A stretch of 63,317 bases of DNA, the filler included, from Folioceros fuciformis (lineage: Eukaryota): the NCBI GenBank assembly GCA_049999805.1. It is 6 parts of 6 records of this genome, joined end to end, with 100 filler letters (N's around TTAATTAATTAA, not from the genome) between each part and the next. Parts side by side here need not be neighbours in the genome. Positions count along the whole stretch, not along the records: positions 36,369 to 54,457 come from JBNGIO010003073.1; 5 more parts are not named here. One strand, 5' to 3'. Position 1 is the stretch's first letter. The number at the start of each line of letters is the position of its first letter. The notes below the pieces were generated by a model. That model worked only from the letters and a program-made list of their open reading frames with translations, was not told where the DNA came from and searched no databases. This document shows, piece after piece, positions 6,069 to 62,208 of the stretch. The translations under genes and the position numbers were made by a program.

Positions 6069-6168
6069 NNNNNNNNNNNNNNNNNNNNNNNNNNNNNNNN
6101 NNNNNNNNNNNNTTAATTAATTAANNNNNNNNNNNNNNNNNNNNNNNNNNNNNNNNNNNNNNNNNNNN
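6069..6168. other. Artificial contig linker
   Basis: N-run, TTAATTAATTAA (stops in all frames), N-run; identical at all five joins. Confidence 0.98.
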
Positions 6169-26306: not shown

Positions 26307-26406
26307 NNNNNNNNNNNNNNNNNNNNNNNNNNNNNNNNNNNNNNNNNNNNTTAATTAATTAANNNNNNNNNNNNNNNNNNNNNNNNNNNNNNNNNNNNNN
26401 NNNNNN

Positions 26407-26600
26407 CTTCTCCTCACGCTGCAACTTCCCTTCTTCTCACGCTGCGACTTCCCTTCTCCTCACGCTGCAACTTCCCTTCTTCTCACGCTGCGACTTCCCT
26501 TCTCCTCACGCTGCAACTTCCCTTCTTCTCACGCTACGACTTCCCTTCTCCTCAGGCTGCGACTTCCCTTCTTCTCACACTCGGACTTCCCTTCTCCCTT
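26407..26600. repeat. Tandem repeat, about 23-bp unit (cttcccttctcctcacgctgcra), about 8 copies
   Basis: Directly visible at the contig start, just upstream of the Harbinger transposase; possibly subterminal repeats. Confidence 0.9.
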
Positions 26601-26757
26601 TTTTATATATGATTATATTGATTATCTTATTTTTAGTTATCAATACTGTGTTCTAATTTTTAGTTATGGATCCTATGTTGTACTTTATGCTTCAAGTTAT
26701 GTTCCAAAGGTCATATTCACATTCTTTATACTTGGAGGATGTACAACCGATAACAGT

Positions 26758-27942
26758 GTGATGCATGTATTGTTCATACTACTTTTGGCAGCTTCAAGTG
26801 GTGATCTTGTGGAGACTTTGCACACTCAAAAAAGTCGTATTTGGTGGAAACCTCCATTGTCTACAAGGTTATGGGAAGAGCTACACATGCAAGCTTGGCA
26901 CTTAGAAGGTCCTAAGAGACAAGATGAGCATTGGTGTAGAGAATACCGAATGTCATATCCAACTTTCATGGTTCTTGTTCCACAACTGCATCCTTTCCTA
27001 GTACAAACCTCACTAAGAACGTCTACACCATGTGATAAAGCTATTGCTCTAGTGTTGCATAGGCTTGGGAGGGATCTACCTTCCCTCACCGTTGCTTTGA
27101 AATATGGTGTTGGAGATGCCACAATTGTTGAGTATACTAAGCTCATTGTTTCCATCTTAAGTGACCCTGCCAAGCTATATTCTTCATTTATCACCATTCC
27201 ATCAGTTCGTCACCAGGTTGACATATCAACAGCATTTGAGCAGCGGACCCTATTGCCTAATATTGTTGGTGCTATAGATGGATTCCTTATCAAGTTTGCC
27301 ACCAAACTAACCGAACAGTACACTCTAGCAGCTTATCACAAACGATACAATATGCATTGCATGGTTGTGCAAGCTGTATGTGACACCCAGAAGATGTTCA
27401 TTAATATATGTGCTAATAGTCCGGGAGGTTCAAATGACGCTAGTATTCTCAAAAATAGTAGCTTATGGCAGCGCCTTATCATTAGACGGATATTTGCAAG
27501 GCCAATCATTGAAGTGGAGGGAGTTCTAGTACCTCCTTACATCATTGGTGACTCCGCTTATCCTCTGAGACCTTTTCTTATGAAAGGCTTCAAAATGCCT
27601 ATGAATGCAAAGCAAAGAGCATTCAACTCTTCCTTTTCTTCTGCACGAGTCGTCATTGAGAATGCTTTCTCCTTATTAAAGAACTGGTGGAGAATATTGA
27701 AGAACCTCAACGTCCACGTGAAATATGCTACGAAGACAGTGGCTGCTTGTTGTGTTTTGCACAACTTTTGCATTGTGGCTGGTGAGTTAGAACCTTTGGA
27801 ACTAGGGGTGGACGAGTATTCTCTACCACATGATGTTCTTGTTATCTTGACAAGTGCGGAGGAAGAGGCTATGAAAAGTATTGCACTGGTTCAACACAAT
27901 GCCTTGGTCAAGCATTGCCGTAGACAAAGACAAGAACAATAG
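26758..27942 (+). CDS. PIF/Harbinger DDE transposase (HARBI1-like), open 394-aa frame
   Basis: YRMSYPTF..L, HTH-like region, VGAIDG, VQAVCD..FI, PGGSNDASIL, YIIGDSAYPL and FN..SSARVVIENAFSLLKNWWRIL..ACCVLHNFC; the D-D-E positions are retained. Confidence 0.93.
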   Translation: MMHVLFILLLAASSGDLVETLHTQKSRIWWKPPLSTRLWEELHMQAWHLEGPKRQDEHWCREYRMSYPTFMVLVPQLHPFLVQTSLRTSTPCDKAIALVLHRLGRDLPSLTVALKYGVGDATIVEYTKLIVSILSDPAKLYSSFITIPSVRHQVDISTAFEQRTLLPNIVGAIDGFLIKFATKLTEQYTLAAYHKRYNMHCMVVQAVCDTQKMFINICANSPGGSNDASILKNSSLWQRLIIRRIFARPIIEVEGVLVPPYIIGDSAYPLRPFLMKGFKMPMNAKQRAFNSSFSSARVVIENAFSLLKNWWRILKNLNVHVKYATKTVAACCVLHNFCIVAGELEPLELGVDEYSLPHDVLVILTSAEEEAMKSIALVQHNALVKHCRRQRQEQ

Positions 27943-28516: not shown

Positions 28517-29425
28517 TTACAATATTATAGCTAGCACAAACCATAAGCTATGACAAGTGCTAGAACCCCTTGATGTATCACTCCTCCTCCTGCCTTGAGC
28601 GCTTGGATACTTGTTTAACAGCTTGGCCAACTCTATTTGCGTAAATTGTTGGAGTTCAACAACCTTTATGCTCTGCTCTAGCCTTGTTTTCTCCATGTTT
28701 TGAAGGATCTCCAACCTTGCTCTCTCCATAATTTGGAGGTTCTCTTGCTTCACAGCTTCAACTCTTGCCCACACCTCTGCAAAGCTGTTGATTAATTCAG
28801 CTATCTTGTCTATCCCCGCACCAGAGAGCTTCCTCTTGGCTTGCTTGGAGACCTTCTTCGCTGTAACACCTTTGAGCTTTGTCACGTGAGTGAAAGGTGA
28901 ATCACAAGAGTGATTGTCCTTGGATGTAGAAGGAGGAGTAGGGCCCCTAGTAGGAGTTGTAGGGGGTGGGGATGTAGGAGGAGGAGAAGAGGCAGGAGGG
29001 GAGCTTGCTGGTGGGTTGTGATTGTGTGATGACTCACACACACCTTCAGACATCCCAGATGCCACACCTTCACAAACATGTGTTTTAGTTAAATCCACAA
29101 AGCCTGGATAATGCGAGTTAGGCATTCCTACCACCTTTGGATTGTCTGACATGAAGGAATGCAGTGCTTCCCAAAAAGCCCACTTAGAAGCATGCACTCT
29201 CGTGCCAAGCTTTTTGGTCTCTTCCTTATATTGCTTCTTCAGGAAGTCCATTTTGTTGCGACATTGCAGACTTGTTGGCACAAAGCCCATGCAAGAGGAC
29301 GAAATCATGAGTGCAATAGCGTCCCAATGGTGGGAGGCAAGGTTCCCTTTGTGAAGATAGTTGACATACACCTCCTCGTATGTTGAAATGAGAGCATGAG
29401 TACTGTCTCCTGTCCATGGAGCCAC
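28517..29425 (-). CDS. Myb/SANT-like (trihelix-type) DNA-binding protein, Harbinger partner ORF
   Basis: WTGDSTHALI..GNLASHHWDAIA..TSLQCRNKMDFLKKQYKEE..W.FWEAL, a Pro-rich linker and a C-terminal coiled coil; convergent with the transposase. Confidence 0.88.
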   Translation of the reverse strand: MAPWTGDSTHALISTYEEVYVNYLHKGNLASHHWDAIALMISSSCMGFVPTSLQCRNKMDFLKKQYKEETKKLGTRVHASKWAFWEALHSFMSDNPKVVGMPNSHYPGFVDLTKTHVCEGVASGMSEGVCESSHNHNPPASSPPASSPPPTSPPPTTPTRGPTPPSTSKDNHSCDSPFTHVTKLKGVTAKKVSKQAKRKLSGAGIDKIAELINSFAEVWARVEAVKQENLQIMERARLEILQNMEKTRLEQSIKVVELQQFTQIELAKLLNKYPSAQGRRRSDTSRGSSTCHSLWFVLAIIL

Positions 29426-30234
29426 ATTCTAGTTTCGAAGCCTAGGAATTGCTGAAACTTGTAGCCCATATGCGCTTGGGACAAGTGCTAGTTGTGTTGC
29501 CAACATGCTGTATTGGAACAGCGGATCCATGGGGAACAGATTAGGCAACTTCACAAACACTGTCCAGCACAAACAACGAAGAGCGAAGGAACCATCCCCC
29601 ACAAACAGCGAAGGAAGAAGATGAACCGGTAGTCACATGCACCCAAGATATATCTCGGGTGCTTAAAAAAATATATATGTCAGCTATTACGGGAAAGCCG
29701 CTTTGACATATACAGAGCTCCAACCGTTAAAAGTAGGGTTGCTCCCTACTTTTAACGGACGGAGCTCCATTTCCTTTTAAAAGATCATTCCGTGGACTAC
29801 GCGACGGATGGAGGTGTTCCAATATTCAATGTAAGTAGCCCTTCAGCGTATAGGACGGGCCGGGTCGGCGCACAAAACAGGCCGGGTCCAAAGTTGATAA
29901 TCTTCATTTATAAATTAGATTAATTTATAAGCTATATAGTTCTCTTCTCCTACGGCCGGGCACTCACTTTCTGCTTGGCGTGATGTGCACCGAAACTTTG
30001 TAAGAGCTTCCCAAGTATAATTGAACTCAGTTTCATGTACTGGAAATGGGTCTTCATCGTATTGTTGCGCTTCCGACTCTCCAATCTCCAACCTGTATAC
30101 AAAAATTATGAAGCGAACAACAAGCGATTATGACCTGTGGGGCATATTTCAAACGAACATTTCAACAAGGCAAAGACATTCTCCACTTCCACTATGCCCC
30201 TTCTTAAGGACCGATTGAAATGTTTTTTAGTGTG

Positions 30235-36150: not shown

Positions 36151-36479
36151 GCGGAAAGATAGTCTCAAAGTTTGCATGAATGCATGTAACCTCAAGCTGG
36201 TCGTAATTCCACACAGTCTAGCAGCAATGCATATATACATACATATACGTGTTCCCAATGCAAGCATANNNNNNNNNNNNNNNNNNNNNNNNNNNNNNNN
36301 NNNNNNNNNNNNTTAATTAATTAANNNNNNNNNNNNNNNNNNNNNNNNNNNNNNNNNNNNNNNNNNNNGTCTACCGGCGCACTCCAACCACGAGAAGAGT
36401 TTGTCTCTTTAGGGTTTAGGGTCCATATAGTTCTCGATTTATAATTGTGCTTGTAGTGTGGTTGTTTTGACCAAACTGT

Positions 36480-37694
36480 TTGTTGGCAGAAACCTGCAGA
36501 CATAATGACCTCGAATCATTGCCGAAGCCTTTCCAAGATTACGTGTATTCAGCGAGAAACTGGAAGCATATGGAAGAGGAAAAGCAGAAACTCGCTAACG
36601 CAGATATGGATGCGGGACTATCGAAGTTTAGGGTCCCAAGCAGCAATCAGAAGACAAAGTATCAAGTAATCCAGCAAAACGTTCTAAAGATAAACGGATT
36701 TCTGGTAAAACAACCATATACTCTGTTATTCGCTAATTTGCCTCGTAGACTGCAACTCCATGAATTTGACAGGCAGCTTACAAGCGAAGAACTTGAAGAC
36801 ATGATCATCGGATTTTCAGAATGCACGAGCAGTAATGTTTATAGGATGGTCCTCATGCACGGGGTGGACCTCAATACATAGGCTAGGGAAGCACTTCGAC
36901 CATGGTGCAAGAAGGGCACCATACAGACATTGCTATGGGAGAAGACCAACATTCCTCCCAGTGCAGGGGCAGTTGAGACTGTGGAGTATTTAACTGTTGG
37001 AAGCGTAGGTCACTCAGAAGCGCAGACCACAAAAGCTGCTTTATTCACGAATCAGGGATTTCTTTTGCCGAGAGTTATAAGGCATGGAGCTGTGGTTAAA
37101 AAACATTTGTTCCACTCGGCAGATTCTATGGTCGTCTCGCTGTATCAAAAGCCTCTAGGGTTAATGGGTATGCAGGTCAATATGTTTTCGGCTGAAAGAG
37201 ACTAGGTCGTGGATGCGTGCGCAGGATCTGGGTTGTTCCTTTAGGTTGTGATTCAAAGAGGAAGGCATGTTGTCACAATGGACATTGATATACGATGCAC
37301 GACTTATATGATGCAGAGAGTGAATGGCGTTGGCTCTTTGCCAGACGCTCATGAGGAGATCAGCACAGACCACTTCTCACACGGGCCCACAAAGTTTTGG
37401 GCCAAAGAAGTCTGTGCAGACGGTAGCGTGGATCGTCATATGCAGGTATTCAGTTTGCTAGGCAAAAAGGGAGAGATATTTTCTCAATCGAACAACAGAC
37501 CAGCGGAAGATCTGTACCTGATGACGATTTGGGATGAGAATGGCACACTTCCGCCTCAGACTGTGGACGACCCACATTTCTTTGTCCCGGACATGGAGGG
37601 AGACGACTTCAGAGACACAGAGGGCCAGCGACTCAAAGATGTAGATATAGTTGTCGATTCCGAGGCCAACCAAGACATTCATGATTTGGTGTAG
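36480..37694 (+). pseudogene. Beta-class DNA amino-methyltransferase (N6_N4_Mtase-like), one frame with three premature TAG stops
   Basis: ORFs 36480-36881, 36930-37205 and 37248-37694 share one frame. Read-through gives YTLLFANLP (degenerate motif IV), LLWEKTN, and YQKPLGLM..VNMFSAERD*VVDACAGSGLFL*VVIQRGRHVVTMDID (motif X-I-II region). Confidence 0.75.
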
Positions 37695-38629
37695 AGGTGA
37701 TTTGGAGAGTAGCTGAAGTCCATGGTACATTATGCCTATATTTAAATTCGACTTGTAAACCCTCTAAATTCATGGCATGCACATAGCCGACTTCTTGTCA
37801 CCCGAGCATACTGTTGAGTGCGCTGGTAGATTAAGTATGATTCGTTTTTTCTGGAAATTTTCATAGTTCTAATAACTTATGTACTAGTTGGTTGTGGGCT
37901 GAAAGCAAATTTGTGGAGATGGATGGCGTCCACCACACATCAAAACAAGTCCTTTTTTTTTAAATGGCTTAAATGTGGATATGTGACTAGGATGGTGTAA
38001 ATTCAAATGTGCACCAAACGGGCTGCATAGAATACGACCGTTAGGCGCAGAACTTGTTACATGAGTGTCAACCTCCTCCTCTCCAGAGGAGCACACTTTA
38101 GAATAGGAGAGCTTGCACCACCACTTTCGCATGCTCCTCGTTGGTGGGATGTTGGACTCATAACTTCGATCTACATCACCACCCCCCCCTGGCCATCTTG
38201 CCCTGCACCATTGCCTGGGGTCCCTAGGCACCTCCTCCACCGACTGCTGCGTGTCTTGCAATACTCGCCTCCATCGCATCAAGCTCCACCTGCAAAAAAC
38301 GGCGTTCACGACAATCTTCCCCTCCACAGCTATGTCTTGCAAGCTTCCGACGTCTGGGACCAAACATGTCAGAAAGAAAAAAATTTGACAGCCACTCAAA
38401 CGTTAGGAAAACCCTTAGTACACACTGCATTGTCTCTATGGGACGCACAAATGACTGCCGACTGCCGAGGTAGGCATGTTTGTGATGCCCAAACATTTGG
38501 ACGCTATACAGAGGGGCAAAACATTCTATTAAACAACCCTTGACCGTATCGGTATTCCATACCTTCGCTGTCCATGCAAGGGTTGATAACATGCAGATCC
38601 GTAACAACCAATAATCAACAAACAAAATG

Positions 38630-38865
38630 TGGTGAGCGTATGGGTGATGGTGAGCGTACGGCAGTGGTGATATAGCGATGGTGAGCATAGGGCAGTGGTG
38701 GTACGGCGATGGTGAGCGTAGGGCAATGGTGAGCGTAGGGCAGTGGTGATGGAGAGTAGGGCGGTGGTGATGGACGTGGAGCGTAGGGTGGTAATATGGC
38801 ATAAGTGTGATGGAGAGTAGGGCGGTGGTGATGAATGTGGAGCGTAGGGTGGTGGTATGGCATAG
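38630..38865. repeat. Degenerate G-rich tandem repeats (ggtgagcgtagggcagtggtgat-like)
   Basis: About ten recurrences of gagcgtaggg and gtggtgatgg words. Confidence 0.85.
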
Positions 38866-39059
38866 GTGTGTGTGCAACTTTGCTATGCCATTGTGCGGCT
38901 ATTGGCCTACGGTTTCTAAGAGGTGCTCTTTGGGGAAAGAGTTTGGACGATGAAAAGTGATGTAGGGCAAGGCCATGTTCATTAGGGCTTTGGTTGTGTG
39001 TTTGTGTCCAGGTGAGGAAGGTACCGAAAACTGGTATACCGATATGGTGGAGCAAGCAA

Positions 39060-39525
39060 GTAAGGTTTAGGGTTTAGCGGTAGGGCAAAGCGGAATGAGT
39101 TTGGTGTTTCGTATAATGGCATAGCAGAATGAGATTAGGGTTTAGTGGCATGGTAGAGCAACAAGCTTTACAGTTTACAAGCATGGCAGCAGCAGAATGG
39201 ATTTAGGGCATGGCGGGGGAGAATGGATGTAGGGTTTAGGGGCATTGCGGAGAAAAATAGGTTTAGGGTTTAGCGACATGATGCAGCAGAATAGGTTTAG
39301 GGTTTAGCCACATAGCAAAGTGGAGTGGGTTTAGGGTGTAGTGACAAGGTGGAGAAAAATGGATTAGAATTTTTATCAGCATTATGGAGCAAAAATGGGT
39401 TTAGGGTTTAGTGACATGGCAGAGCTGAACAGGTTTAGGGTTTAGTGACACGATGGAGAAAAGTGGGTTTAGGGGTTTGTAAACATTGTGGAGCAAAATG
39501 GGTCTAGGGTTGAGCGGCTCAGAGT
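39060..39525. repeat. Minisatellite of about 34-bp period, each unit carrying plant-telomere-like GGGTTTAGGGTTTAG
   Basis: About 12 diverged units of the type aatgggtttagggtttagtgacatggnggagcag, for example near 39260, 39294, 39328, 39397, 39432 and 39465. Confidence 0.88.
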
Positions 39526-39623
39526 GGAGCTTATGGAGGGCATTATAGGGTTATGGGTTACAATGAGGAGTACAATTTTTTGGTTTTGATCATTTTACAA
39601 GACTTTCTACATGCCTCCATCAC

Positions 39624-42600
39624 ATGGCGCGTGACACCCAGCCTTTACTTGTCAAGTACACCCCTTGCCCAGTGTGTTCTCAACTTTGCTCCGGGGTCAA
39701 GGGGGTGAAATGCCATATTGGTCACAAGCATAAGGACTTCGATAGGACCACTTGGGTGGCACAAGTGCGACTTGCTTCTTCCTGCGAACTAGGTGCTAAT
39801 CCTCTTCTAACAAATCCTCTGGGGCCGTCCCCGGAGGCTTGGTTGTGGCTTCGAGGGCAATCTGATCACTTGTTGGCTCTATTCCATGCTTGTTTTCCAT
39901 ATCCTCGCCTCTTTCGACGTCTCCCTAGGCACCTACATGATGATATTCACCTTGCTTATCGTCTTCCCTTGGATCGCCTTGCTTGGGACCTGAGGGATGA
40001 GGGTGCTTGGATTTTGTTCCTTTTCCTGCCTAGATGGTGCCTTCGGCGCTCTAGGGGTGGTTCGTCAGGTCATAGGGAGGTGGCCTCTCGACTTTGCCGT
40101 TTTCGATCTGGAGATTGGCAAGCTCTTTAGGAGGAGGATTTACTCGCAGCAAAATCTCGATTGGAGTCCGCTAAGGTTGACAAGGTGTGCCATGACCCAT
40201 TTAAAGCGCGTCTCAAGCGGTGTCTCATGTTGGGCAAGGATGGTAAATATGCTCGGGCTGCTAGAGCATTGCGCCCAGAGCCGGCTGCATTTGCAACTGA
40301 GGACACCATTGCTGCACTTCGTGCCCTTCATCTTGAACCTCATGACACTATATTGCAAGATCTTCTTGACCACACGGTCGAGGAGCCTTTTTGCTTGGAT
40401 AGGGTTGGTTTTGGACATGCACTCTCTTCTGCGCAGGGGGTTTGTCTGGCACAGTTTATGACCATTTTCAAGATTATTTTTCTTCTGAAGATCCCTCAAG
40501 TGTTTTTTCGGAGCTTTATACACTAGCAGTTGCTGTGGCCAGGGGCAAAGTTCCCAATCGAATATCTCAAGTTTTGGCGGCTAGTAGGCTACTTGCATTG
40601 GAAAAGCCCACCTCAGGAGTGCGCCCTATTGCTGTGGGGGAGGTATTTTTGCACCTTATCAGCTGAAGTATCGCAATTCAACTTCAGGAGTACTTCCAAG
40701 CGCATCTTGCACCGCACCAATTTGGGATTGCTACCCTAGGTGGGTGTGAATTTGCCGCTTTCGGCATCCAGGCTACCCTTGAGTTACATCCTCATTGGGT
40801 AGCTTTGTAGGTTGATATTGAGAATGCTTTCAACACTGTCTCTAGGGTCGCCATCTTCTCGGAGCTCAAGAGTGCAGGAGGTCAATTGGCAAGTCTTATC
40901 CCTTTTGTTCGCTCCTTCTATGGCTCGCCATTCAAGCTCTACTACCAACACGGCCCGACTATTGAGGAGGTCTCAATATTTGATTCAGCAACAGGCACAA
41001 GGCAAGGGGATCCGCTAGGGGGTGCTCTTTTCGCAATTGCGCATTTTCGTGCCTTGTCCTCTACTGCCTTAGCATTTCGGGAATGCCTTTTCCGTTCCGT
41101 GGCCGATGACATTCATATTCTTGTGCAAGGAGTCACAGTCAAAGCAGCATTTGATTTTTTCTCATCAGAGCTCTCCAAGGTGGGGTTGCGGGTCAAGCTA
41201 TCTAAATGCAGGGTTTGGTCCCCTTCAGGCATCACTCCCCCCCTTCAATATTTAGGGGGGATATCACCCCCTCGCAGGGACTTCGAGTCTTGGGTGTACC
41301 TATAGGACCTCTTGATTTTGTTCATAGGTTTGTGGATGAAGCATTGGATGAAGATTTGGCTCATATCATGGACCTCTCACAAATCGGTGATCCTCATATT
41401 GCGTTTGGTATCCTTTCTTCTTATTTTGCACGGCGACCAAGTTACCTCACTAGAACTGTTGCGCCTTCTCCATTTTTCTTATCAAGTCTCAGGACGTTTG
41501 ACAATCAAGTTATGCAGGCTCTTGGGAACATCATAGGTCCGGGCACCCTCGAGTGTGATATTGGTGATTTGGCTTGGAAGCAGGCTTCTTTGCCAATGGC
41601 CTTTGGAGGGGTTGGTCTTTTGGCCATGGAGGCGTCTGCCCCCGCTGCCTTTCTCGGCAGCTGGGCCCTCTCAACTCCAATTTTGGCCTCTCGTTTTTTG
41701 CTACAAGATTCCCCTGTTCTTGAAAGTTTTGTTTCAAGTGTTGAGGAGGGCGTTTTCCCTTTACAGGTATCTCTTAGGCAAGTGAGGGATTCTCTACCTT
41801 TGGAGGCTCTTGAGGCTCTACCTCCTTTCACCTCCTTTTCTAGGGAAGGGTTGAAGGGTCTCCAAGCCTCTCTCCTAGAAAAGCAATATGGCCAAGCATT
41901 AAGAGCCCTTCTTTCAGACTGATCCATCCCTAGGTCTTCTCGAGCTCGTATTCGATTTTGTTCAGGTAAAGGAGTGGGCTCTTGGCTTTTAGCTCGACTT
42001 TGTATCCACGCGTTTCGAATCGCACTAGCAACTTTCGCCACCGCGATGAGATTTTGCTTAGGTTTGGCCCACCCCTTGGCTTTTTCTCTCTCTACATGTA
42101 GTTATGGGGTTGCCATTGTCGATACAGGGTCCCATTTGGCACGTTGTCCTGTTGGGAGACATCGCATTGCCACTCCTGATGCAGTTCAAGATGTCGTGTT
42201 CTCAATAGCTAGGGAATGTGGGTTTCTTCCGTATATGGAGCGTCCATATACTTTGCGCAATGAGGTTTCTCATAAAGCCGACCTTTTCTTCAATAGGGGA
42301 GAACAGGTTTGTGTTGCTGATGTGGTTGTTACAGATCCCACTAGGGATTCGATTTGTAAGCTCGTCATCATCAACCCCCCTGGTTGGGCAGCAGAGGGTT
42401 GTGCAAGTGCCAAAGTCCATAAGTATTCTCCCTTGCAAGATGGGCATACTTTCATCCCCCTTGCTCTTGAGACTCATAGAGCTATGGGCAAGGACTTTTC
42501 AAGGTATGTCAAGGAGTGCGCCAAGGTTTATCAGAGCAATAGGAATGATGTTCTGCCTCTTTCCTCTATGGTGGCCTTCTTTCGACAACGTGTATCCATT

Positions 42601-42672
42601 GCTTTGCAACGAGCATTGGCCAATGTAGTTTTTAGAATAGAGCAGGGCAAGCAGCTTCTTCGGCATCGGTAG
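39624..42672 (+). mobile_element. CRE-type non-LTR retrotransposon (C2H2 zinc finger, RT, zinc knuckle, restriction-like endonuclease), apparently full-length but inactivated
   Basis: CPVC..GVKCHIGHKH; LLALEKPTSGVRPIAVGE; VDIENAFN; GTRQGDPLG; VADD; GLRVLGVPIG; ASLPMAFGGVGL; then C..GSHLARC, KADL..VADVVVTDP, AKVHKY and FIPLALET..FRQRVSIALQR. Two frameshifts and at least four stops. Confidence 0.9.
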
Positions 42673-42753
42673 TAGGTAGGCCTTTTGTTATTCCACATCA
42701 TGACATTTTGAGAGTAGTAAATAATTTTTGAAAATAATATTCGCACGTGAGAG

Positions 42754-42859
42754 AGTACCTCTTTTTGCTTTTGGCCCTAATTGGGTTGTTTCTCCAATCT
42801 TTGGAGTACCTCTTTTTGCTTTTGGCCCTAATTGGGTTGTTTCTCCAATCTTTGGAGTA
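42754..42859. repeat. Tandem duplication of about 52 bp
   Basis: gagtacctctttttgcttttggccctaattgggttgtttctccaatctttg occurs twice in tandem. Confidence 0.9.
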
Positions 42860-43582
42860 ATGGGACTTTCATAGAAATCATAGAAAATACTGTTACAAAC
42901 AAAATCAATCAATGTGCTTCTTCATGTTTAATATTATATTTTAATCTATACATGTAAACTAATTACAAAATATGCATGGCGCCACACCATAGAGAGAAGG
43001 GCGTTGTAAGGCTGTGTAGACTCACATTCTATTTGGCTAGAACTTCTGGTGCAGATTTACAGTGCATTATTTGGAATCAAATTGAATAATCATTGCCCAG
43101 GACTACTTTTGGCAACGCGAGGACCTGAGGAGGCGACCACTAAGTCCTTAAACATCCAAACTCCGACGACTACGGTTGTCTCAAGCAATCATGCTTCAGA
43201 AAAGATCTTCCGACCAGGAAGTTCCTGTGAGCGAGGTCTAACATTGGACCCGTGTAGTCTATCCTGCAACTATGTTTCAGAAGACGGCGTATGCGCCTAT
43301 TACAACCAAAACGCTACTTCATACGCAAACAACTTACATCCCAATTGGGACTTGTACACAGGCGCTAGGGGGGCCCTCTGAAACTCGAATCCAAATAGAA
43401 GGGTATCAAAATATGGCGTCGCTCCATACCTCGTACGTACAAGGGGGCCACATGCCGCGGCTTCCCATCATATTTGGCAAACGGGACAAGCTAAGAGAGA
43501 GATGATCATGGACAGGATCGGGGTAGATGCCACAGGGTCTAAAGAAACGTTGGGCACCCACCAGAAATAATTGTTGCACCAT

Positions 43583-46500
43583 TCAGAAGAGCTCCTCCGA
43601 ATTGAACTTGTTCCACGCCTCCTGTGATTTCAGATTGCATTTAGCAGGCACAACCTATGAGTGCAACTCTTTGACTAGGGCTCGTACACACATACCTTCA
43701 AAATGTCAAAAACTTTCTCCGCAATATATTTCTGCTGTACTGTTGCTCCTTTCTGCTGCACTTTGTCTGGGTGTACACACAGAGTTGCTTTCCTGTATGC
43801 CTTCTTCACAGCTATTGCACTGATGATGTCAGTCAGGGATATAGGCTGCCAACCACACTCAGGCCACAATACCTGACACAAAAGACACGGAGGGTCAGAG
43901 AACCAACAAACTTTTCCATCAGAACACCATGATCCCGCAGGACTAAGGGGTTAAAACTAGTTAACATTGGAAGCTTGGAGGCCATTACATATTGTAGAGT
44001 AGAAAGCAGTGCTCGCAGATTCCCTTCCTTCCCAGCAGCCCAGCGTCTTATTTCCGTGTCCAGCACTTCTCCAGCCCTCTGCAACAGGAAACCAAATAGC
44101 ATGATAAGATATCATGTACAGGTGAGATAATCTCTTGGAGTAATCTACACATGAAATGGCAAGGCACAAATAGTCTTACATGCTTCTCAGCTTGTTCCCA
44201 CTGCTGATCCAAATCTCGTTGATTTTTATCCGCAAGTGCCTTGGCCTGCAACAGGGAAAGGAGGAAGTGTTGTTCACCACTGGATCTATTACAAGTGATT
44301 AAGAATGCAAGGATCACCCGAAGCAGACAAAGGGCCATTGCACAGCCCAACAAGAGGGACATACCGCTCTCTCCAGAGTTCGCTGATGGCGCTCCCACCT
44401 TGCTTTTCGCCGGTCGGGAGTCTCTCCCTCAATTTCTTGGAATACATCCTGAGACGCAGGAGCTGTTCCCGACACAAATCTCAGCAGACAGCAATTTGTA
44501 GCCTCCGTCCAAACCCCCAGATGAGACCTGACCTCATCCTTGCCAGTTATTGGTTTATTCAAAGCCACCTACACCAAGGAGGAACTCACCAAAAAGGGAT
44601 GTCCAGTCATCAGCAATATTTGTTGACGACGAAACTTTTCGCACAGGAGGCATTGAAGAAGGCCCCCTCCTTTCAGTGCTAAAAGTTTGACTTGATCGAG
44701 TGTCAGCTGCATGATCCTGCAAAAAGACCCAAATAGATAACAGTTGATTAAAAGGTACCTAAATAAATTCCCAACCCGATTGCCTGCCACATATTCCCTC
44801 ATACCGAATTCTGTGGCCTCTGCCGTGGCTCACTGTTTGCTCGATTACCAAACAGTTTATCCCAGTCAGTTTCGTTCTTGCGTTGCTGGTCCCTAGCTCT
44901 CTCAGCAGCATTTCGCTCTGCCTTCTCACGAGCTTCAGCAGCAGCGCTTTCAGCTCTAGCTCTAGACTCAGCAGCGGCCCTTCTGGCCTCAGCAGCTGCT
45001 CTTTCTCGCGCTTCAGCTGTTGCTCGTTCAACTGCAGCCCTCTCCACTCTCTCTCTTGCCTCATTGGCAGCTCTTTCCCGAGCTTCAGCTGCAACCCTCT
45101 CAAAAGCAGCTCTTTCAGCCCTTTCCTTTGCTTCAACCGCTGCTCTTTCCCGAGCTTCTGCCGCAGCCCTCTCTACAGCTGCTCTTTCTGCAGCCCTGTC
45201 CTTCTCACGCTCTCTCTCTCTTTCCCTCAAGCGCTCTCTCCTTTGCCTCTCCCTTTCCCTCTCCTCCCTGGCTTCCCTCTCTCTCTCTTCCCTCTCCCTT
45301 GTCTCTCTCAGTTTCTGCTCTTTTGTTTCTCTCTCCTCTCTCTCTCTTGCAATGGCCCTTGCTATCATTGCCTCTCTTTGCTTCTCTTCCCTGTCTTTCT
45401 CTCTTGCTTCTTTAGCTAGTCGGAACTTTACATCTCCTCTCTCTGACGGATCTTTCACTGGCGGAGACCCAGCACCTTCACGATCACCTTGCCCTTCCTC
45501 CCATTGAAGATTGGGGGCTCCAGATCTATGTAAAACTCCAGCCACAAACTCCTCTAGCCCGTCTATACCCCTTGCAGCAGCTTCCTTCATTACATCCTCG
45601 GCAGCACCTGGTGCCCAAGGAGGAGAGGCAGCCTGCTGGCGCACTTGCACAGGAGGAGCCTGCCATGAAGACTCGCTATTGAACTCCGCCCCGTTGTTCT
45701 CGAACACATCTTCAAACAAAAATGCCTCCTTCTCATTTCTAGGTTGTGGTGCTCGCCGGGACGGTGGGGGCACCGTCGAGGGTGCTGTCACGAGCTTGAC
45801 TTCCTCCACAGTCAACCAAGTTTCATCAGAAACCGGTTCCACCCTCTCTCTCTCCGATGGCATTGGGGGGGGACTTGCAGATGCCCCAGAAAAGGGAAAT
45901 CCAGACTCATCCTTTACACTGGAGTTTGTAGTTGAGCTCCCTATTTCCTTTTGACGGTCCTTCACTGGACGTGATGTCCTCGGGAGATGAGAAGCTTCAA
46001 TTGGCTCAGTATCAGATATTGAAGTAGATTCCACACTTGATCCAAATAAAGGAAACCCTGGTCCTTCACGCAAACCGGCTTCTGTGGCTGAGTCTCCAGG
46101 ATCCTTCCGCCAGACGTTCTTTCCAGGGCGTGCTGATTTTGAGAAATATGCAGGTTCCACGGTCTCTGGCTCTGGAAACACCGGTGAAGTGTCACCCCCT
46201 GAATCAAACAGAGGAAATCCTGATCCATCCTTAAGGCTGGAATCAGATGCCAGCCCTGCATTATCTTTCCGTCGCCCTTCCTTTATGGAGCGTGATGAAG
46301 GTGGAAAATAGGAATCATAGGATGGAGTAAATCCATCTATGACATCAGCCTCAGTACTTGAACCTGCACCATCAGTAGCAGTCTCTGACTGACCCCCCAA
46401 AATGTCACTCCCCAGCGGCACAGAGGCGGAAGTTTGCTGCATGATGGAGATAATGGGGTCCACAAACCCAGTAGACACTTCAGCAGGACCAGTAGAGGAG

Positions 46501-47846
46501 ATGGAGGGTTGTGGTTCAGCATTTTGCGAGGGCTTCGAGTCTGTAGACCAACTGCACAGGTCAGCCACAAATAATGAGATCCAGAACAAGCGCAGTTCCA
46601 TCCTATGGTTTGCCTCAGATTCCTATCATTTCTCAGGAAGATCATGGAACAACGCTGCTCTCTGCACACTACCAAACAACTGTCCACAAACAAGCAACAC
46701 GTTCAGGACAACCAAACAATGAGACCAGGCACCAGCTGCAGTTTGAAACATCTGGAGTTACAATCCTGGCAGTCAGTCCTTGGAACAAAATAGACTTAAC
46801 AACACAGACCGGTACAGTGAAGTACACTGATGGGACCTAACAGCAGGACAGGTCTCGTCAAACCTGGCTCAGAGATCCGAAGAAATTGGAATTCAAAACC
46901 CCAAGATCAACAGTATCGGATTAGAATTTGAAGCTGACAGGCTAGTTCAGCAACAACGAATGGAATATCAAATTAAAATCGAATCCGAAAGCGTCAGGTC
47001 TGACTACGGCAGCTAAGCCAAATGGACTGGAGACGAGCAACATATCCACACAGAAGGCATACGTGAAGGACAGGCCCGCGGTGACAAAGGGAGGAGGACA
47101 TACCGCAGCTTCGAGGACTCCACGGAGCTCATCCCTGACAGTAGATCGTCAAAACCCCTATCAGCCTCCGACGGAGCAGAAGAACGAGCGGGAACCGATC
47201 TGCCGGACACAGGTGCAGGTTTGGGCTTGCGGTCCGTTGCCGTCGAGTATCCTCCTAGCAAATCCTCGAACTGCGAGTGGGAAACAGCTGCCGAGTCTCC
47301 ACCACCTCCACTTCCAGTTCCAGTTCCGCTAAACAAATCATCGAACACTGCAGAAGTACTTCTGGTGCCAGGCACTCCTCTGAAGATGTCATCATCATCG
47401 TACACAGGAGTATCGAAAACAGGCAAATTGACGCTTTTGGACATGCCGGACTGCGCCTTGGAAGACACCCTAAAGATGTCATCAGGACCGGGATACTTGG
47501 GAGATGAGTACTTAGGAGGTCCCCCAAACACATCATCGTAATCGTTGCTCGACCCGAGCCCAAACGGATCGTCAAGATTGGTGCGAGGAGGAGCTCTGAC
47601 GTTGCCATTACTCCCGGCCCCAAACATTTTCTCACCAAAATCATCCACATTAGGCTCCAGCACGGATCCCTTCCCACTGCCTCCATTCCTGCTGGTTCTA
47701 GCCGCGGAACCCTCCCTCCAGCTGCTGCTCCCGCCGTTCTCCCCCCCGATCCCCAGGCCCAGGCCCCTGGAGCCCGCCATCGGGGCCGACTTCCCCTGCG
47801 GCTTCAATCCATAGTCCCGCTGCAATATGTTGGCGAAATCCTCCAT
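43583..47846 (-). CDS. Auxilin-like J-domain protein, multi-exon
   Basis: N-terminus [15 protein letters not shown], a long E/R/A coiled coil, then [70 protein letters not shown]. Confidence 0.94.
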
Positions 47847-49499
47847 GCTGTCCCTTCAGATCGGATCAGATCGAGCGCATCACCAGCTCCTCCAGAGCTC
47901 TGCTAAAACCTGCGCCGCCTCGCCTCCGCTCCTGACGGCTGTGTCCGGGAGGCCAAACCCCGGCGTCATCGCCAGGCCCCTGCCCTGGCCATGCCGATCG
48001 ACAGAAGCCAGATCCAGACGCAGCAGCAGCAGTACACAAATGTGGATGTCACAGATGCGAACGCATCAAGGAGAGCGCTGGTTGCGTGGTGACTGTGTGC
48101 GCGATCATCCCCCTCACACTCTCCGTGAGTTCAATCCGGCCAGTCCTGGCCGCTGTGCGAACGCGAACCAGGTTTGGGCCTTCCCACCTCTTTCCGCTAC
48201 CAGACAAAATCCCCACATGCTAATGTGTACCTATCTACATATATACTGCACCCCTACTATACGCCCACACAGGGAAGACGGGGTCGGGTCGACTCGTATC
48301 CCTCAGTCTACGATACCACGTGAATCGAGAAACGACCGTTGTTCACGAGGCTCGATAAAATCCTGGTGACTTCTCTTATTATTGGCACTAGTATGTTTTT
48401 TTTTTCTTTTTTGTAAAAACTTTTATGTCGTATTGCTTTCTAAGTATTTTACTTGACATGGCTTAATCTGGCCCAAAGGCAAGTTCAATTTGCATGGCAT
48501 CTTTTTTTTTAATATATGTAGAAAAACTATTATATTCATAAATATAAAATAGTCATGTTCTTACACAAAGTTGTTTTATTTTGTGGCTAAATTTCAACCT
48601 ATGTTGTGTTTGTGTTGTGGATTAATTATATTTTAATATATATAAATTATGTTGTGCATGACTTAGGAATATGAGGATGCATTACTTTCTGTCAATTGTT
48701 AGCCATAGTTAGTTAAAGCTTCATTAATGTATAAATACATGAAATAAAAAATAGGATTTTAAATAGGAAAAGGATCTTGAATTGTGAAGTGAAAGGGTCT
48801 ACTTCATGCTGAAGTGGCTTGAGCCACCTCCCTTTTGCTTATTAATCTTGTCCTGTAATTTGTATTTGCCAGAGTTTATTGCAAGGCGATGACGATTTGC
48901 TACTGTATGAAAATGTCATACAAAAGAGCTTGTTGTTGTACCAAAACCACAATGTCACACAAAGAAGACTAACTTCGTTTCTTCTTGCTGTAAGTAATGC
49001 CAAAGTTGCATTTGCAAGTGTCCTTTGCAAGGGGATGAAAGACCTATTGTTGAAAGAAAGCCACAATGCTAGAGAAGGGGAGACTAAGCCACACTGCCAA
49101 TGGAAAGGGAGACTAACTACCATGCCAAACAAAGGGAGATTAACATTGGTCTTTTTGCTGCAATGCACTCTAATGAGAATTTAGAAAGAAACCCACAATG
49201 CTAGACAAGGGGAGACTAACTCTTTTCCTTTTGTTGCAATGCACTTTGGCAAGAATTTGGAAAACATCTTGCTCTTGGCAATTTCAATGGCCTCATGTGT
49301 CTTAGTGGCAAAGTAATGAGGGTGTGTATAGCCTGCAAAAGCTTGGGATGGACTTGTGGATTTTGGCTTGCAAGAGGAACTTGCTCTTGCATTTTGGCTG
49401 GTGTAAGCCTCTGAGGATAACATCCTTGTAGATAAAGTATTGTGTGGCAGCATGATGAGAGAGCATTGCTAGTTTTGACTTGTGGAGAATTGGGAGTTG

Positions 49500-50404
49500 A
49501 CATTCAGGCTTGACCTCTCAGGTGGCTAACAATGGAGAGGGGCATTGTTAACAATTCCAAGTTGTTCTTTAATTTCCATACCTCCCGACGAAAGCCGATG
49601 GCCCCAAGATTGAAGTTGTCTAAACATTGATAACTAGAAGCACTCAAGCTCTATTGGTCCACCAAAAGCATCCCTCCCAAGGTCAGGACCATAGTGTGGT
49701 GTTTCTTCCAAGCTTGCTTACCTAATGTCGATAGGTGGGATGGTATGCTAGTGGCAGCAAGGGAATAGTCTTGCATGATGTGTACGTCCAGGGCTACTAA
49801 CAAAAGCCAACATATCTTCTTTCAATGCAACTATGCCCAAGCAATGTAGTGGGATATAGAGGTATGGTTGTCACGTAACACGCTGTTTAAGTGTCAATGG
49901 TGGGGGTGGTTGGGAGCTGTTGCTTATATGGCTTATGGTGCAACCAGACAGCAATAGTTTATGGTGGCAAGGATTTCTTGACTACTAACATTGTGCTTTG
50001 GCGAATTTGGGAGCACCTACTAAACACTACATAAGGAGGAAGGGCAAGGGTCCCTCACTGTTTCAAGTAGAAGAGATGGAGAGTGGTAGGGTTACCCCAA
50101 TCAAAGATTCCCATTGGAATCATGTTTGTCCTTGGAGAGCTGGTAGTTTGAGGGAAGCTATCTAACCCTCTTACATGCATATTATGGTTGTCAATACTTA
50201 GCCTCCATCAAATTATGGTTGTCAACACTTTGCCTCCATCAAGAGCTTAGTGACAATTAGATAGTCCCTCACAGGGGTGGTTGATTTGCTACAAAGTCCC
50301 CTTCCATAGTCCTTCCCCTTTCATAGTCCTTCTTGTATGACTTATGTAATCTCTTGTACAGCTCGAGGCTATCTTAATCCGATTTTTCACCAAAAAAAAA
50401 AAAA
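49500..50404 (+). mobile_element. Decayed L1-type LINE 3' end
   Basis: zf-RVT-like remnants LYWSTKSIPPKVRTIVW..LP and CMMC..SQHIFFQCNYAQAM* (Cys at 49772), ending in a 13-nt poly(A) at 50392-50404. Confidence 0.75.
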
Positions 50405-52090
50405 CCATATCATGTGGGGTGCCTTAAGGCCAGATTCACCATAGAAACCTAGTTTGCTTTGATCGGTCTCATGATAAACCCCCTCAGCCGGACATGGGAC
50501 GCTCCTCTAGGGCACCAAGCCATCCCTAATAAATTCTCCGTCTTGGCCGACGAAAAATAGGATCTACTCCTCATGATTTATAATATTATATATATATATA
50601 TATTAAATTTCGGAATGTCACTTTTTGGAAACTCAAAAATTTATTAAACTCGCCTTCGATTCCTGCTGACTGGAGATAGAGAGTTCGACACTTTGAGGGG
50701 AGTGAAATGAAGGAAGTTTCCAGAAGAACAAGACGTGAGTCCAGATGCTTGCCTGCCTGTAAGGAACCCTTGGTTTCACAGGCCTTCGAAGAGCTAAGAA
50801 CATGGGATGTGATCGTGTGCAATCAGGCCATCCTGCTCAATTGGCCATGGACAAGCGCTTCTTGCCTGAGGGATTGATATGGATGTCCAGCTTATGAGGC
50901 AGTTGCATGTTAGCACAGGTGTCAAGATTGGACGTGCATCTTGCAATTCGGCACATACATGCCAAACGGGAAAGCATCAACAAGCATGTTCAGTAGCCGT
51001 CCACATTCCATGATCTGCCTGCCTCCGGTAAGGTCCACCAGTAATTGCTCAGGGCTCGAGAGGGGCAAGCGAAGGGTACATGGTGACCCACAGTCAGGCC
51101 CTCTTGCTCCTTGTCTCCTAACAGAACAGGCGCTAATTGGTTGGAGCAAGCAGCTGCCCACACCTAGTAGTTAGGAGGGATGCTGCTGTGCGACACATCA
51201 TAGTACACGTTGCTGACAGATTCCGAGTTCGCACAAGCTTGAAGGACGGCTACATAGAGGAGCATTTGCCTTCTGCACACACCTGCGTTACGTTTCTCTT
51301 GGAACAGTTGTCTACCCTCGGTAGGCTTCCCTGCATGAAATGAGAGGAGCTTATGGGTTGCCATCCTGGTGAACACGTCTAATAGTATGGCCTCCTGTAG
51401 CCTGTCTCGACTTGCATGTATGCGGAAGATGGTTTCCCACGGATGTATTCGACTGGACCCCAGGTTTGAGAGTCAGTGAGATGATTGCATTGCAGCCTTG
51501 GCACTGTAAAGAACAGACGGTAAGAACGAGGAATAGATATTCTAGGGCTCCAACGGGCTCAGTAAGCTTCCCCTGCTGACATAGCGGGTTCGCCACTGTA
51601 GCTGTCACGGTGCTGGAGGAAAGAAGACACCGTATCCACTCATGCCCATCCAAAGAAACTTGCAGGCTGCTCATCCACCAACTGGCTTGAAACTGTTATT
51701 TACCCGGAGGACTTGCCAGCGGGCCTCCTCTGTGTGCTGATTTCCTCACAGTGTAGTGCTTGCCGGCCTGGTTGTTCGCCACATCACTGCTTCCCTAGGG
51801 GAGGTGGGCGAGAGCTCCTGGCCATCTGACGGGCACACACTCGGAGTATGAGACTCGTCATGTGGAATGGCTGCAGGAAAATTGCTGCTTCCACATGAAG
51901 ATTGGCGTCACCTCGTGCTGTTTCGAGGAGATGCTATTGCGCTTGCAGGACAGATATGACGTTCACTCTCACTGAAATTCTACCTTCGAGTCTGATGGGA
52001 CGTGGCTCGAAGGCGAGGAGAAAAAAATGCGTAAGCTGCAACCTGCTGAAGTATCTTCGAGCACGTTGGCGCCCCGACAAGGGAGCTGAC

Positions 52091-54457: not shown

Positions 54458-54557
54458 NNNNNNNNNNNNNNNNNNNNNNNNNNNNNNNNNNNNNNNNNNN
54501 NTTAATTAATTAANNNNNNNNNNNNNNNNNNNNNNNNNNNNNNNNNNNNNNNNNNNN

Positions 54558-62108: not shown

Positions 62109-62208
62109 NNNNNNNNNNNNNNNNNNNNNNNNNNNNNNNNNNNNNNNNNNNNTTAATTAATTAANNNNNNNNNNNNNNNNNNNNNNNNNNNNNNNNNNNN
62201 NNNNNNNN

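Follow-up and report, generated by a model that had tools for sequence, protein, structure and literature searches.

A decayed beta-class DNA amino-methyltransferase-like gene in repeat DNA of Folioceros fuciformis and its relatives in streptophytes

To our knowledge, the writers of N6-methyladenine (6mA) and N4-methylcytosine (4mC) in plant DNA are poorly known. The sole plant amino-methyltransferase with genetics that was met in the literature searched is the sperm 4mC enzyme of Marchantia. In this study, a pseudogene from the land plant Folioceros fuciformis that corresponds to a DNA amino-methyltransferase-like protein of the beta class (PF01555 type) was analysed together with its relatives. 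The pseudogene occupies positions 36471-37694 on the plus strand of a stretch of 63,317 nt taken from assembly GCA_049999805.1, and this whole stretch is called the window in the following text.

Several described systems are close to this gene. The sperm 4mC enzymes of Marchantia, MpDN4MT1a/b, carry a TSPPY motif and cluster with prokaryotic N4-cytosine enzymes (bioRxiv 10.1101/2021.02.12.428880). The bdelloid rotifer enzyme N4CMT possesses a chromodomain and is encoded by a single-copy host gene with introns (PMC8885841; structures 8s9m-o). Related genes are also carried by algal transposons. The 21.5-kb Sola1-1_Ec32 of Ectocarpus encodes a 1104-residue accessory protein with ParB-like and N4/N6 methyltransferase domains (PMC12477816), and Iyer, Abhiman and Aravind 2011 is cited in the same paper for green-algal cases. 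In Bostrychia, PAG2 (PF01555 plus SET) and PAG3 (ParB-like plus 2-oxoglutarate (2OG) oxygenase) are found in Plavaka, Mutator and Zisupton elements, and most of the copies are degenerate (bioRxiv 10.1101/2025.02.11.637652; cited as Curr Biol 2025). The eukaryotic clades of N6-adenine methyltransferases were listed by Iyer, Zhang and Aravind, and land plants show few of them (PMC4738411); none of the clades described in the available part of that paper fits the plant family studied here.

The family resembles the bacterial beta-class N6-adenine enzymes CcrM (6pbd), M.RsrI (1eg2/1nw5), M.MboIIA (1g60), M1.HpyAVI (5hek/5hfj) and M.BceJIV (8urk) in its permuted motif order, and W-x-K, QKP, D-x-x-x-G-S-G and an acidic residue after strand 2 are also common to both. 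Unlike these enzymes, the family carries D-[I/V/L/F/A]-P-Y-G or DLPRG at motif IV and never DPPY, and the window copy reads NLPRR at this place. The relatives further differ from the bacterial enzymes in their long N-terminal extensions and acidic tails, and the family is repeated in plant genomes. The likeness to the algal transposon methylases lies in the presence of a PF01555-type gene in eukaryotic repeat DNA with many, mostly degenerate copies; however, the plant family has no transposase or element structure in view, and no SET domain was found in Pfam scans of the window copy and its relatives. The algal proteins were not among the 43 relatives retrieved with HMMER, and the family is set beside them by description only. 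The plant family comes from streptophytes including land plants, whereas the available portions of the algal papers report no land-plant cases. MpDN4MT1 and N4CMT likewise represent a beta-class amino-methyltransferase fold of prokaryotic type in a eukaryote. Their (T)SPPY differs from the motif of the family, which has Asp at that place and no second Pro, with MpDN4MT1 being compared by description. In contrast to N4CMT, the plant family is repeated, and the window copy is intron-free over the 1.2 kb in view.

The read-through frame and its predicted fold

The read-through frame comprises 408 codons (36471-37694, plus strand), and is interrupted by in-frame TAG codons at 36879-36881 (codon 137), 37203-37205 (codon 245) and 37242-37244 (codon 258) before the terminal TAG at 37692. 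An earlier note on this DNA, made from the sequence alone, had described one frame of about 405 codons broken by the same three stops, and this description was borne out. The frame holds four stops, all TAG, compared with 14-20 in the other five frames; 2000 shuffles gave 23.6 +/- 4.5 stops, and 0 of the 2000 had four or fewer. No frameshift occurs along the 1.2-kb frame, and no intron was found over the 1.2 kb of the gene in view. The TAGs at 37203 and 37242 lie inside contigs of two public DNA sequencing runs of the same organism (X1 and X2), which match 37077-37307 with 0 differences. These runs are possibly the assembly's own sample, and the confirmation is therefore not independent support; the exact contigs listed cover 37203 and 37242 and not 36879.

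The motif order of the frame is permuted. The motif IV remnant N-L-P-R-R (AAT TTG CCT CGT AGA; 36735-36749, residues 89-93) stands N-terminal to motif I, the S-adenosylmethionine (SAM)-binding loop, which reads VVDACAGSG (37206-37232; DACAGSG at residues 248-254) in the window copy and VLDLCSGSG in the family. LLWEKTN (36930-36950), whose W156 is invariant in an 18-sequence alignment, and a QKP motif (37146-37154), whose Q226 and K227 vary hardly at all across the family, are found between them. Motif I is followed by RGRHVVTMDID (37257-37289), which contains strand 2 and the acidic residue after it (GRNxVAV[ED]xD in the family), and by an acid-rich C-terminal tail (37359-37691). This tail is predicted to be disordered, with a predicted local distance difference test (pLDDT) value below 50 from residue 297, and tails similar to it also occur in relatives. 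All these features are on the plus strand. Motif I, QKP, W156 and the acidic residue after strand 2 (VVTMDID) are retained in the window copy, and the strings quoted in the earlier note (YTLLFANLP, LLWEKTN, QKP, VVDACAGSG, RGRHVVTMDID and the acidic tail) were all recovered in place.

Homology was examined at the level of single sequences and of profiles. An exhaustive HMMER search of 1.84 billion cluster representatives with the window protein returned 43 relatives at an expectation value (E) <= 1e-3, including 10 at <= 1e-10, and the top relative reached E 6.7e-31 with 30% identity over residues 11-310. A word-indexed protein search with the read-through protein gave 3329 candidates and none at E <= 1e-3, and a phmmer search of the window protein against PDB sequences returned only RsrI at E 1.8. 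The curated gathering score of PF01555 (N6_N4_Mtase) is 26.7 bits. This score was reached by 15 of the 18 relatives scanned (27.3-65.7 bits), one of which matched profile positions 3-218 of 221, whereas the window copy scored 23.0 bits (E 8.7e-5). The PF01555 assignment made in the earlier note thus stands for most of the relatives scanned and falls short of the cut-off for the window copy. A family profile of 44 sequences matched the solved N6-adenine enzymes CcrM (2.3e-17), M1.HpyAVI (4.5e-17), MboIIA (8e-15) and RsrI (5.9e-14), as well as M.BceJIV of the same class (8urk, E 1e-15), and gave weaker matches to the N4-cytosine enzymes rotifer N4CMT (1.3e-7) and PvuII (4.5e-3). In these alignments, the family consensus D-l-P-y-g is in register with DPPYN of CcrM, and motif I is in register with FGVG.

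The predicted structure agrees with the profile matches. The AlphaFold2 model built from the 44-sequence alignment has a mean pLDDT of 73.9, and most 10-residue blocks of residues 11-296 exceed 90, the lowest being 63. All of the top ten PDB matches returned by Foldseek belong to the beta-class DNA amino-methyltransferases (E 3.3e-12 to 6.3e-10), with target-normalised template modelling (TM) scores of 0.52-0.72 and identity to the solved enzymes of about 15%. Matches of the model include CcrM, RsrI, MboIIA, PvuII and rotifer N4CMT (N4CMT at E 1e-9), whereas METTL3 appears only from rank 34. The model is a Rossmann methyltransferase fold whose best matches are DNA methyltransferases and not RNA or small-molecule ones.

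The window segment has, by motif order, profile and model, the predicted fold of a beta-class (motif IV before motif I), SAM-dependent DNA amino-methyltransferase. The class proposed in the earlier note is supported jointly by HMMER, the Pfam scores of relatives, the family profile and Foldseek. As judged by sequence profile, the family is closer to the solved N6-adenine enzymes than to the N4-cytosine enzymes. The link that the earlier note drew to the enzymes of Marchantia and bdelloids needs correcting in this respect: no TSPPY is present, and the profile is nearer the N6-adenine enzymes.

Motif IV, decay and the distribution of relatives

Motif IV was counted in the 22 relatives that cover the region, with the misaligned fragments P0027 and P0037 set aside. 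D-[I/V/F/A/L]-P-Y is present in 14 of them, DLPRG in six (two of which share one 90% cluster), DIPHG in one (Ginkgo) and DIPST in one. The canonical form (D/N/S)PP(Y/F/W) was found in 0 of the 22 and not in the window copy (NLPR), and Ser at the first place, as in SPPY or TSPPY, is absent from the window copy and all 22 relatives. Given that DPPY and SPPY are missing in all relatives, NLPR is only partly a product of decay. The earlier note, which read NLPR as standing instead of DPPY or SPPY, was right about the degenerate motif in the window and mistaken about its starting point, since the relatives mainly carry D-x-P-Y (14) or DLPRG (6).

In a tree of 25 of the 44 sequences, built without short fragments, P0029 (1825 residues) and P0046 (truncated at the C-terminus), the window copy belongs to a 7-row clade with the DLPRG sequences (support 98/96). 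Its end branch is 1.48, compared with a median of 0.91. The position in this clade makes NLPR the DLPRG form with two further changes, and the aromatic residue was already missing in the nearest intact relatives, which carry DLPRG. N89 (AAT) and R93 (AGA) are each a single G-to-A step from GAT (Asp) and GGA (Gly), and the TAG at 37203 stands at the family Trp of G-D-W-V-L-D, where TGG to TAG requires one G-to-A change. An origin of the stops and motif changes through C-to-T/G-to-A decay of silenced, methylated repeat DNA would be plausible. With three TAGs and an NLPRR loop that lacks both Asp and an aromatic residue, the window copy is, as read from its sequence, dead and encodes no enzyme; the earlier note had come to the same view from the stops and NLPR. 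Reassignment of the stop codon was rejected, because the host is a land plant and catalytic residues are lost too. Land-plant nuclear genes use the standard genetic code.

The loop of the nearest relatives shows a pattern of its own. DLPRGL is kept in all six members of the DLPRG clade with sequence at motif IV; identity to P0002 is 35-49% among the members compared. Conservation at this level of identity points to constraint on a changed function. We see about an even chance that the DLPRG clade, in which Tyr is replaced by Arg, is catalytically altered or inactive. Its members may be either non-catalytic partners or enzymes with a new specificity; METTL14 is a known non-catalytic partner, that of METTL3.

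Thirty of the 43 relatives were looked up, which gave eight representatives with organism names and 22 others that are Logan, ENA or JGI records. Chara braunii has three relatives, one of which is an 1825-residue model with two tandem units. The liverwort Riccia sorocarpa has three divergent annotated genes, each on a different contig (47-52 Mb), the fern Adiantum nelumboides has a single cluster that comprises two loci, and Ginkgo biloba has one relative. The contigs that carry the named relatives belong to plants or Chara and measure 1 to 52 Mb. The term 'bacterial-type' used in the earlier note therefore suits the fold and not the genomes in which the named relatives are found. No flowering plant occurs among the named relatives within the 30 of 43 hits that were looked up. 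A profile search with the nearest clade against a set of 5.8 billion gave eight matches, and the DLPRG clade is known only from Logan contigs. Database entries for the relatives give no more than 'DNA methylase N-4/N-6 domain-containing' or 'hypothetical'. The literature searched, supplements aside, yielded no account of the family and none of such genes in Chara or land plants. The family appears to be an undescribed streptophyte branch of eukaryote-resident amino-methyltransferase genes, of which the fold and kinship are known.

The long relatives consist of a conserved N-terminal domain, a helical middle domain and then the methylase, and many have acidic tails. The N-terminal 270 residues of four of them (P0014, P0039, P0029 and P0008) share 29 invariant columns, including G-G-x-x-x-x-E-A-R. 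This domain lies outside the window copy, since the contig starts inside the gene.

Copy number and genomic surroundings

The window consists of six separate pieces, cut by five identical 100-bp spacers (44 N, TTAATTAATTAA, 44 N) at 6069-6168, 26307-26406, 36269-36368, 54458-54557 and 62109-62208. The spacer, 44 N on either side of TTAATTAATTAA, is presumably an artificial joiner between contigs. Genes on opposite sides of a spacer are accordingly not linked. The pseudogene is located at the very start of the piece 36369-54457 (18,089 bases; JBNGIO010003073.1), and its frame begins 102 bases into this piece, so the 5' part of the gene is cut off by the contig end just upstream. The pseudogene and an auxilin-related J-domain gene are on this one piece, with zero spacers between them.

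Contigs of the runs X1 and X2 were aligned to the piece at >=90% likeness. Summed contig depth over 36369-38293 was 102-290 in X1 and 45-179 in X2, compared with 7-13 in X1 and 5-11 in X2 over the auxilin gene. Summed depth is not copy number and was read only as many copies, of the order of tens. The window copy is one of the order of tens of copies that are at least 90% alike, in line with the repeated family that the earlier note had expected. Exact contigs of the window copy itself (36476-36842 and 37077-37307) have a depth of 10-11, which equals the single-copy level. Six variant contigs have another base at 36860, and 186 of the 265 places at which X1 differs from the window are transitions. 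No further copy of the methylase was found within the window by tblastn.

The repeat extends beyond the frame on both sides. The upstream flank (36369-36470, no strand assigned) is part of the repeat, which runs on to the contig edge. In other copies, 39 other letters replace 36392-36478, and 36369-36391 is common to them (depth 50.7 in X1 and 31.6 in X2). A lone copy of TTTAGGGTTTAGGG is present upstream of the frame at 36410-36423, and a possible splice-acceptor-like ...ttgttggcag, read from the sequence, ends at 36489. Because the repeat continues past the contig start, the missing N-terminal part reflects an assembly limit and not biology. The downstream flank (37695-38025, no strand assigned) is still repeated by contig depth, and the right limit of the repeat lies at about 38025-38293. 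Position 38025 is covered by 20 variant contigs, and the depth is 158-229 up to 38293; exact contigs of single-copy depth are present downstream at 38030-38436 and 38410-38755. Nothing recognisable as a terminal repeat was seen at this right edge on reading the sequence.

Two further runs were considered. The contigs of X4, which is guessed to be RNA, have depth 0 over 36369-38678 and cover the auxilin gene; they provide no evidence on expression of the pseudogene. The contigs of X3 lie on repeats only (36369-47900 examined) and leave the auxilin gene at depth 0. Of the 164 differing places in X3, 94 are C>T or G>A, compared with 80 of 265 in X1, and X3 may have been made from the same sample as a converted (bisulfite-type) library. 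In that case, heavy cytosine methylation of the repeats, the pseudogene among them, would follow.

The remainder of the piece carries other repeats and genes. A tandem array of about 34-bp units with TTTAGGG cores (TTTAGGG(TTTAGGG)) at 39060-39477 lies just upstream of a non-LTR (long terminal repeat) retroelement at 39567-42913 (plus strand); TTTAGGG is the plant telomere-type repeat. The retroelement contains an RVT_1 domain at 40811-41305, a zinc-finger-like N-terminal open reading frame (ORF) and a Cys/His-rich C-terminal ORF, and its summed depth climbs along its length from about 500 (5' end) to about 4000 (3' end), where single-copy DNA shows about 10. Inside the retroelement stretch, 51 bp are duplicated exactly and in tandem at 42753-42854. 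The auxilin-related gene extends from 43067 to beyond 47900 on the minus strand. Its exons are joined by one X4 contig over seven listed CT..AC gaps, which equal GT..AG on the minus strand, and the best named matches of its protein are from Ginkgo, Adiantum and the lycophyte Diphasiastrum (36-38% identity). A receptor-kinase gene on the minus strand follows, with the kinase domain in the exon 52739-53035 and more long frames that reach about 54000. The remaining pieces include a Harbinger-type pair that consists of a DDE_Tnp_4 transposase at 26410-27942 (plus strand) and a Myb/SANT-like ORF at 28517-29428 (minus strand), as well as a Copia-type RVT_2 fragment at 3501-4433 (minus strand).

Competing explanations and significance

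We consider it probable that the segment is a dead, multi-copy relic of an intronless beta-class DNA amino-methyltransferase-like gene in a plant repeat. Several results weigh against this reading or parts of it. The window copy is itself sub-threshold for PF01555, with a match confined to residues 225-274, so its membership rests on transitive homology and on a model that was built with relatives. Canonical motif IV is missing in all 22 relatives, and none of the members is known to be active. Neither a transposase nor a terminal repeat, a target-site duplication or the other end of an element can be seen, the repeat runs off the contig, and the depth figure is a sum over contigs. The N-terminal domain of the long relatives has a GGGH..EAR stretch that resembles, by eye, the ParB/sulfiredoxin signature. 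A ParB-like fold there would tie the family to the algal accessory proteins, and five tests for it gave nothing significant. The domain had no match in a PDB sequence search, matched DUF6551 of Pfam only below threshold (E 0.019 in P0008), gave nothing useful against PHROGs, reached E 0.28 in hhalign against a phage ParB-methylase, and was unreliable in the AlphaFold2 model of P0014 (pLDDT below 50). The look-alikes of the domain in the atlas were animal proteins, fungal DUF3723 (0.95) and ParB_N (0.93, rank 12).

The same segment could be a pseudogene of an old, vertically inherited streptophyte host gene family that was multiplied by segmental or tandem duplication and never was transposon cargo. 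The tree clades look lineage-specific (a Chara clade, a Riccia pair and a pair of Adiantum and Ginkgo), and the three divergent Riccia genes, each on its own long contig, fit such a history. A further point on this side, and against the preferred reading, is that the methyltransferase-like L7F22_007404 (P0028) and the auxilin-like L7F22_007402 (P0069) of Adiantum nelumboides are on the same 1,317,823-bp contig, two locus tags apart, and form the same neighbour pair as in the window. This pairing may be chance or old linkage; if it is not chance, an old host locus would be favoured over a mobile insertion. However, the tree places the Adiantum protein and the window copy in separate clades, and they are thus not evident orthologues. 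Vertical inheritance with duplication also fits poorly with the many copies that are at least 90% alike with their non-coding flanks included, with the contig breaks inside the repeat, and with the position of the copy in a repeat block beside a satellite and a high-copy retroelement. In addition, the gene model of one Adiantum member includes a fused stretch that looks like a retrotransposon integrase, which is our own unconfirmed reading (Pfam finds only the methylase, residues 422-649). We regard such a host origin as unlikely, although it retains some weight. The many nearly identical copies, flanks included, the absence of introns from the part in view and the precedents in algae argue for the family as cargo of mobile DNA, as the earlier note had proposed; this is plausible by analogy, and we give it slightly better than even chances.

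A large DNA virus (giant-virus-like or other) that had integrated, and in which the methyltransferase gene then decayed, is an improbable source of the segment. Protein-language look-alikes of the nearest intact relative were mostly viral (Uroviricota) PF01555 clusters (score 0.90-0.94), which serve as a lead only, and methyltransferases are common in chloroviruses (PMC7248222). The sequence matches are weak in comparison: 5 of 39 candidate stretches were confirmed in the IMG/VR scan, all with <=38% identity over <=131 residues, the longest viral tblastn match (270 residues, 28%) was to a phage ParB-methylase/terminase locus, the best match in cultured phages had 26% identity, and no virus-like gene besides the methylase was found on the piece 36369-54457. 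This longest match lies on an IMG/VR phage contig (L002, 5152-9198) with three adjoining genes for a ParB-methylase fusion (DSPY), a second methylase (DPPY) and, by reading, a terminase; this type of phage locus is said to be the source of eukaryotic ParB-linked methylases (PMC4738411). Bacterial or phage contamination or a misjoin, by which the segment would not be plant DNA, can be given very little credence. Folds of this kind are typical of restriction-modification enzymes of prokaryotes and of phage enzymes, and no contig bridges the methylase segment to the auxilin gene, since contigs break at repeats, so that the join rests on the assembly. Yet no spacer precedes the auxilin gene, the flanks are plant-type repeats (TTTAGGG units and retroelement), and the closest relatives reside on plant and Chara contigs of megabase scale. 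A metagenome scan with the 7-sequence nearest clade gave 24 loci that match only around motif I (24-33% identity over 60-131 residues by tblastn, plus one 29-residue stretch at 55%) and no close relatives. The high repeat depth, together with exact contigs at 10-11, like the 7-13 of the host auxilin gene in the same runs, makes contamination unlikely; as to the misjoin that the earlier note had named as a refuting result, no spacer or depth anomaly separates the pseudogene from the auxilin gene. A living gene, in which the TAGs are sequencing errors or are read through, has hardly any probability either. The restriction of all four stops to TAG and the intact frame over 1.2 kb would suit it, whereas two of the TAGs are within 0-difference contigs, the catalytic Asp is lost, a conserved Trp has become a stop, the end branch is long, and the standard code applies in land-plant nuclear genes.

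A dead repeat copy of a methyltransferase-like gene remains the preferred reading, and the window copy would now be inert, decaying repeat DNA. The family, as suggested by its fold and the retained SAM-loop residues, would consist of SAM-dependent, DNA-binding proteins. Asp at the first place of motif IV is a pointer to N6-adenine methylation. On the basis of this Asp and the nearer kinship to N6-adenine enzymes, the intact D-x-P-Y-G members may bind SAM and methylate adenine N6 in DNA, a role that we hold to be possible but somewhat short of an even chance. A more far-reaching proposal is that intact siblings are working methyltransferases of non-flowering streptophytes, probably of 6mA, which are carried by mobile elements and mark them, and which possibly form a second, so far unrecognised amino-methylation system tied to male gametogenesis. 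Chara, the liverwort, the fern and Ginkgo have swimming sperm, as Marchantia does. This proposal is speculative, and we judge it quite unlikely.

The locus itself is inert and an ordinary pseudogene, and its value is that of a pointer to the family. Starting from it, at least 43 sequence clusters were brought together as one family, and its named members occur in Chara, Riccia, Adiantum and Ginkgo. For biochemical work, the unusual catalytic loop (D-x-P-Y-G or DLPRG) offers a clean target. Should some members prove active, they would be candidate enzymes for adenine methylation in the DNA of non-flowering plants, or for the self-marking of mobile DNA there, and they would extend the transposon accessory methylases of brown and red algae to land plants.

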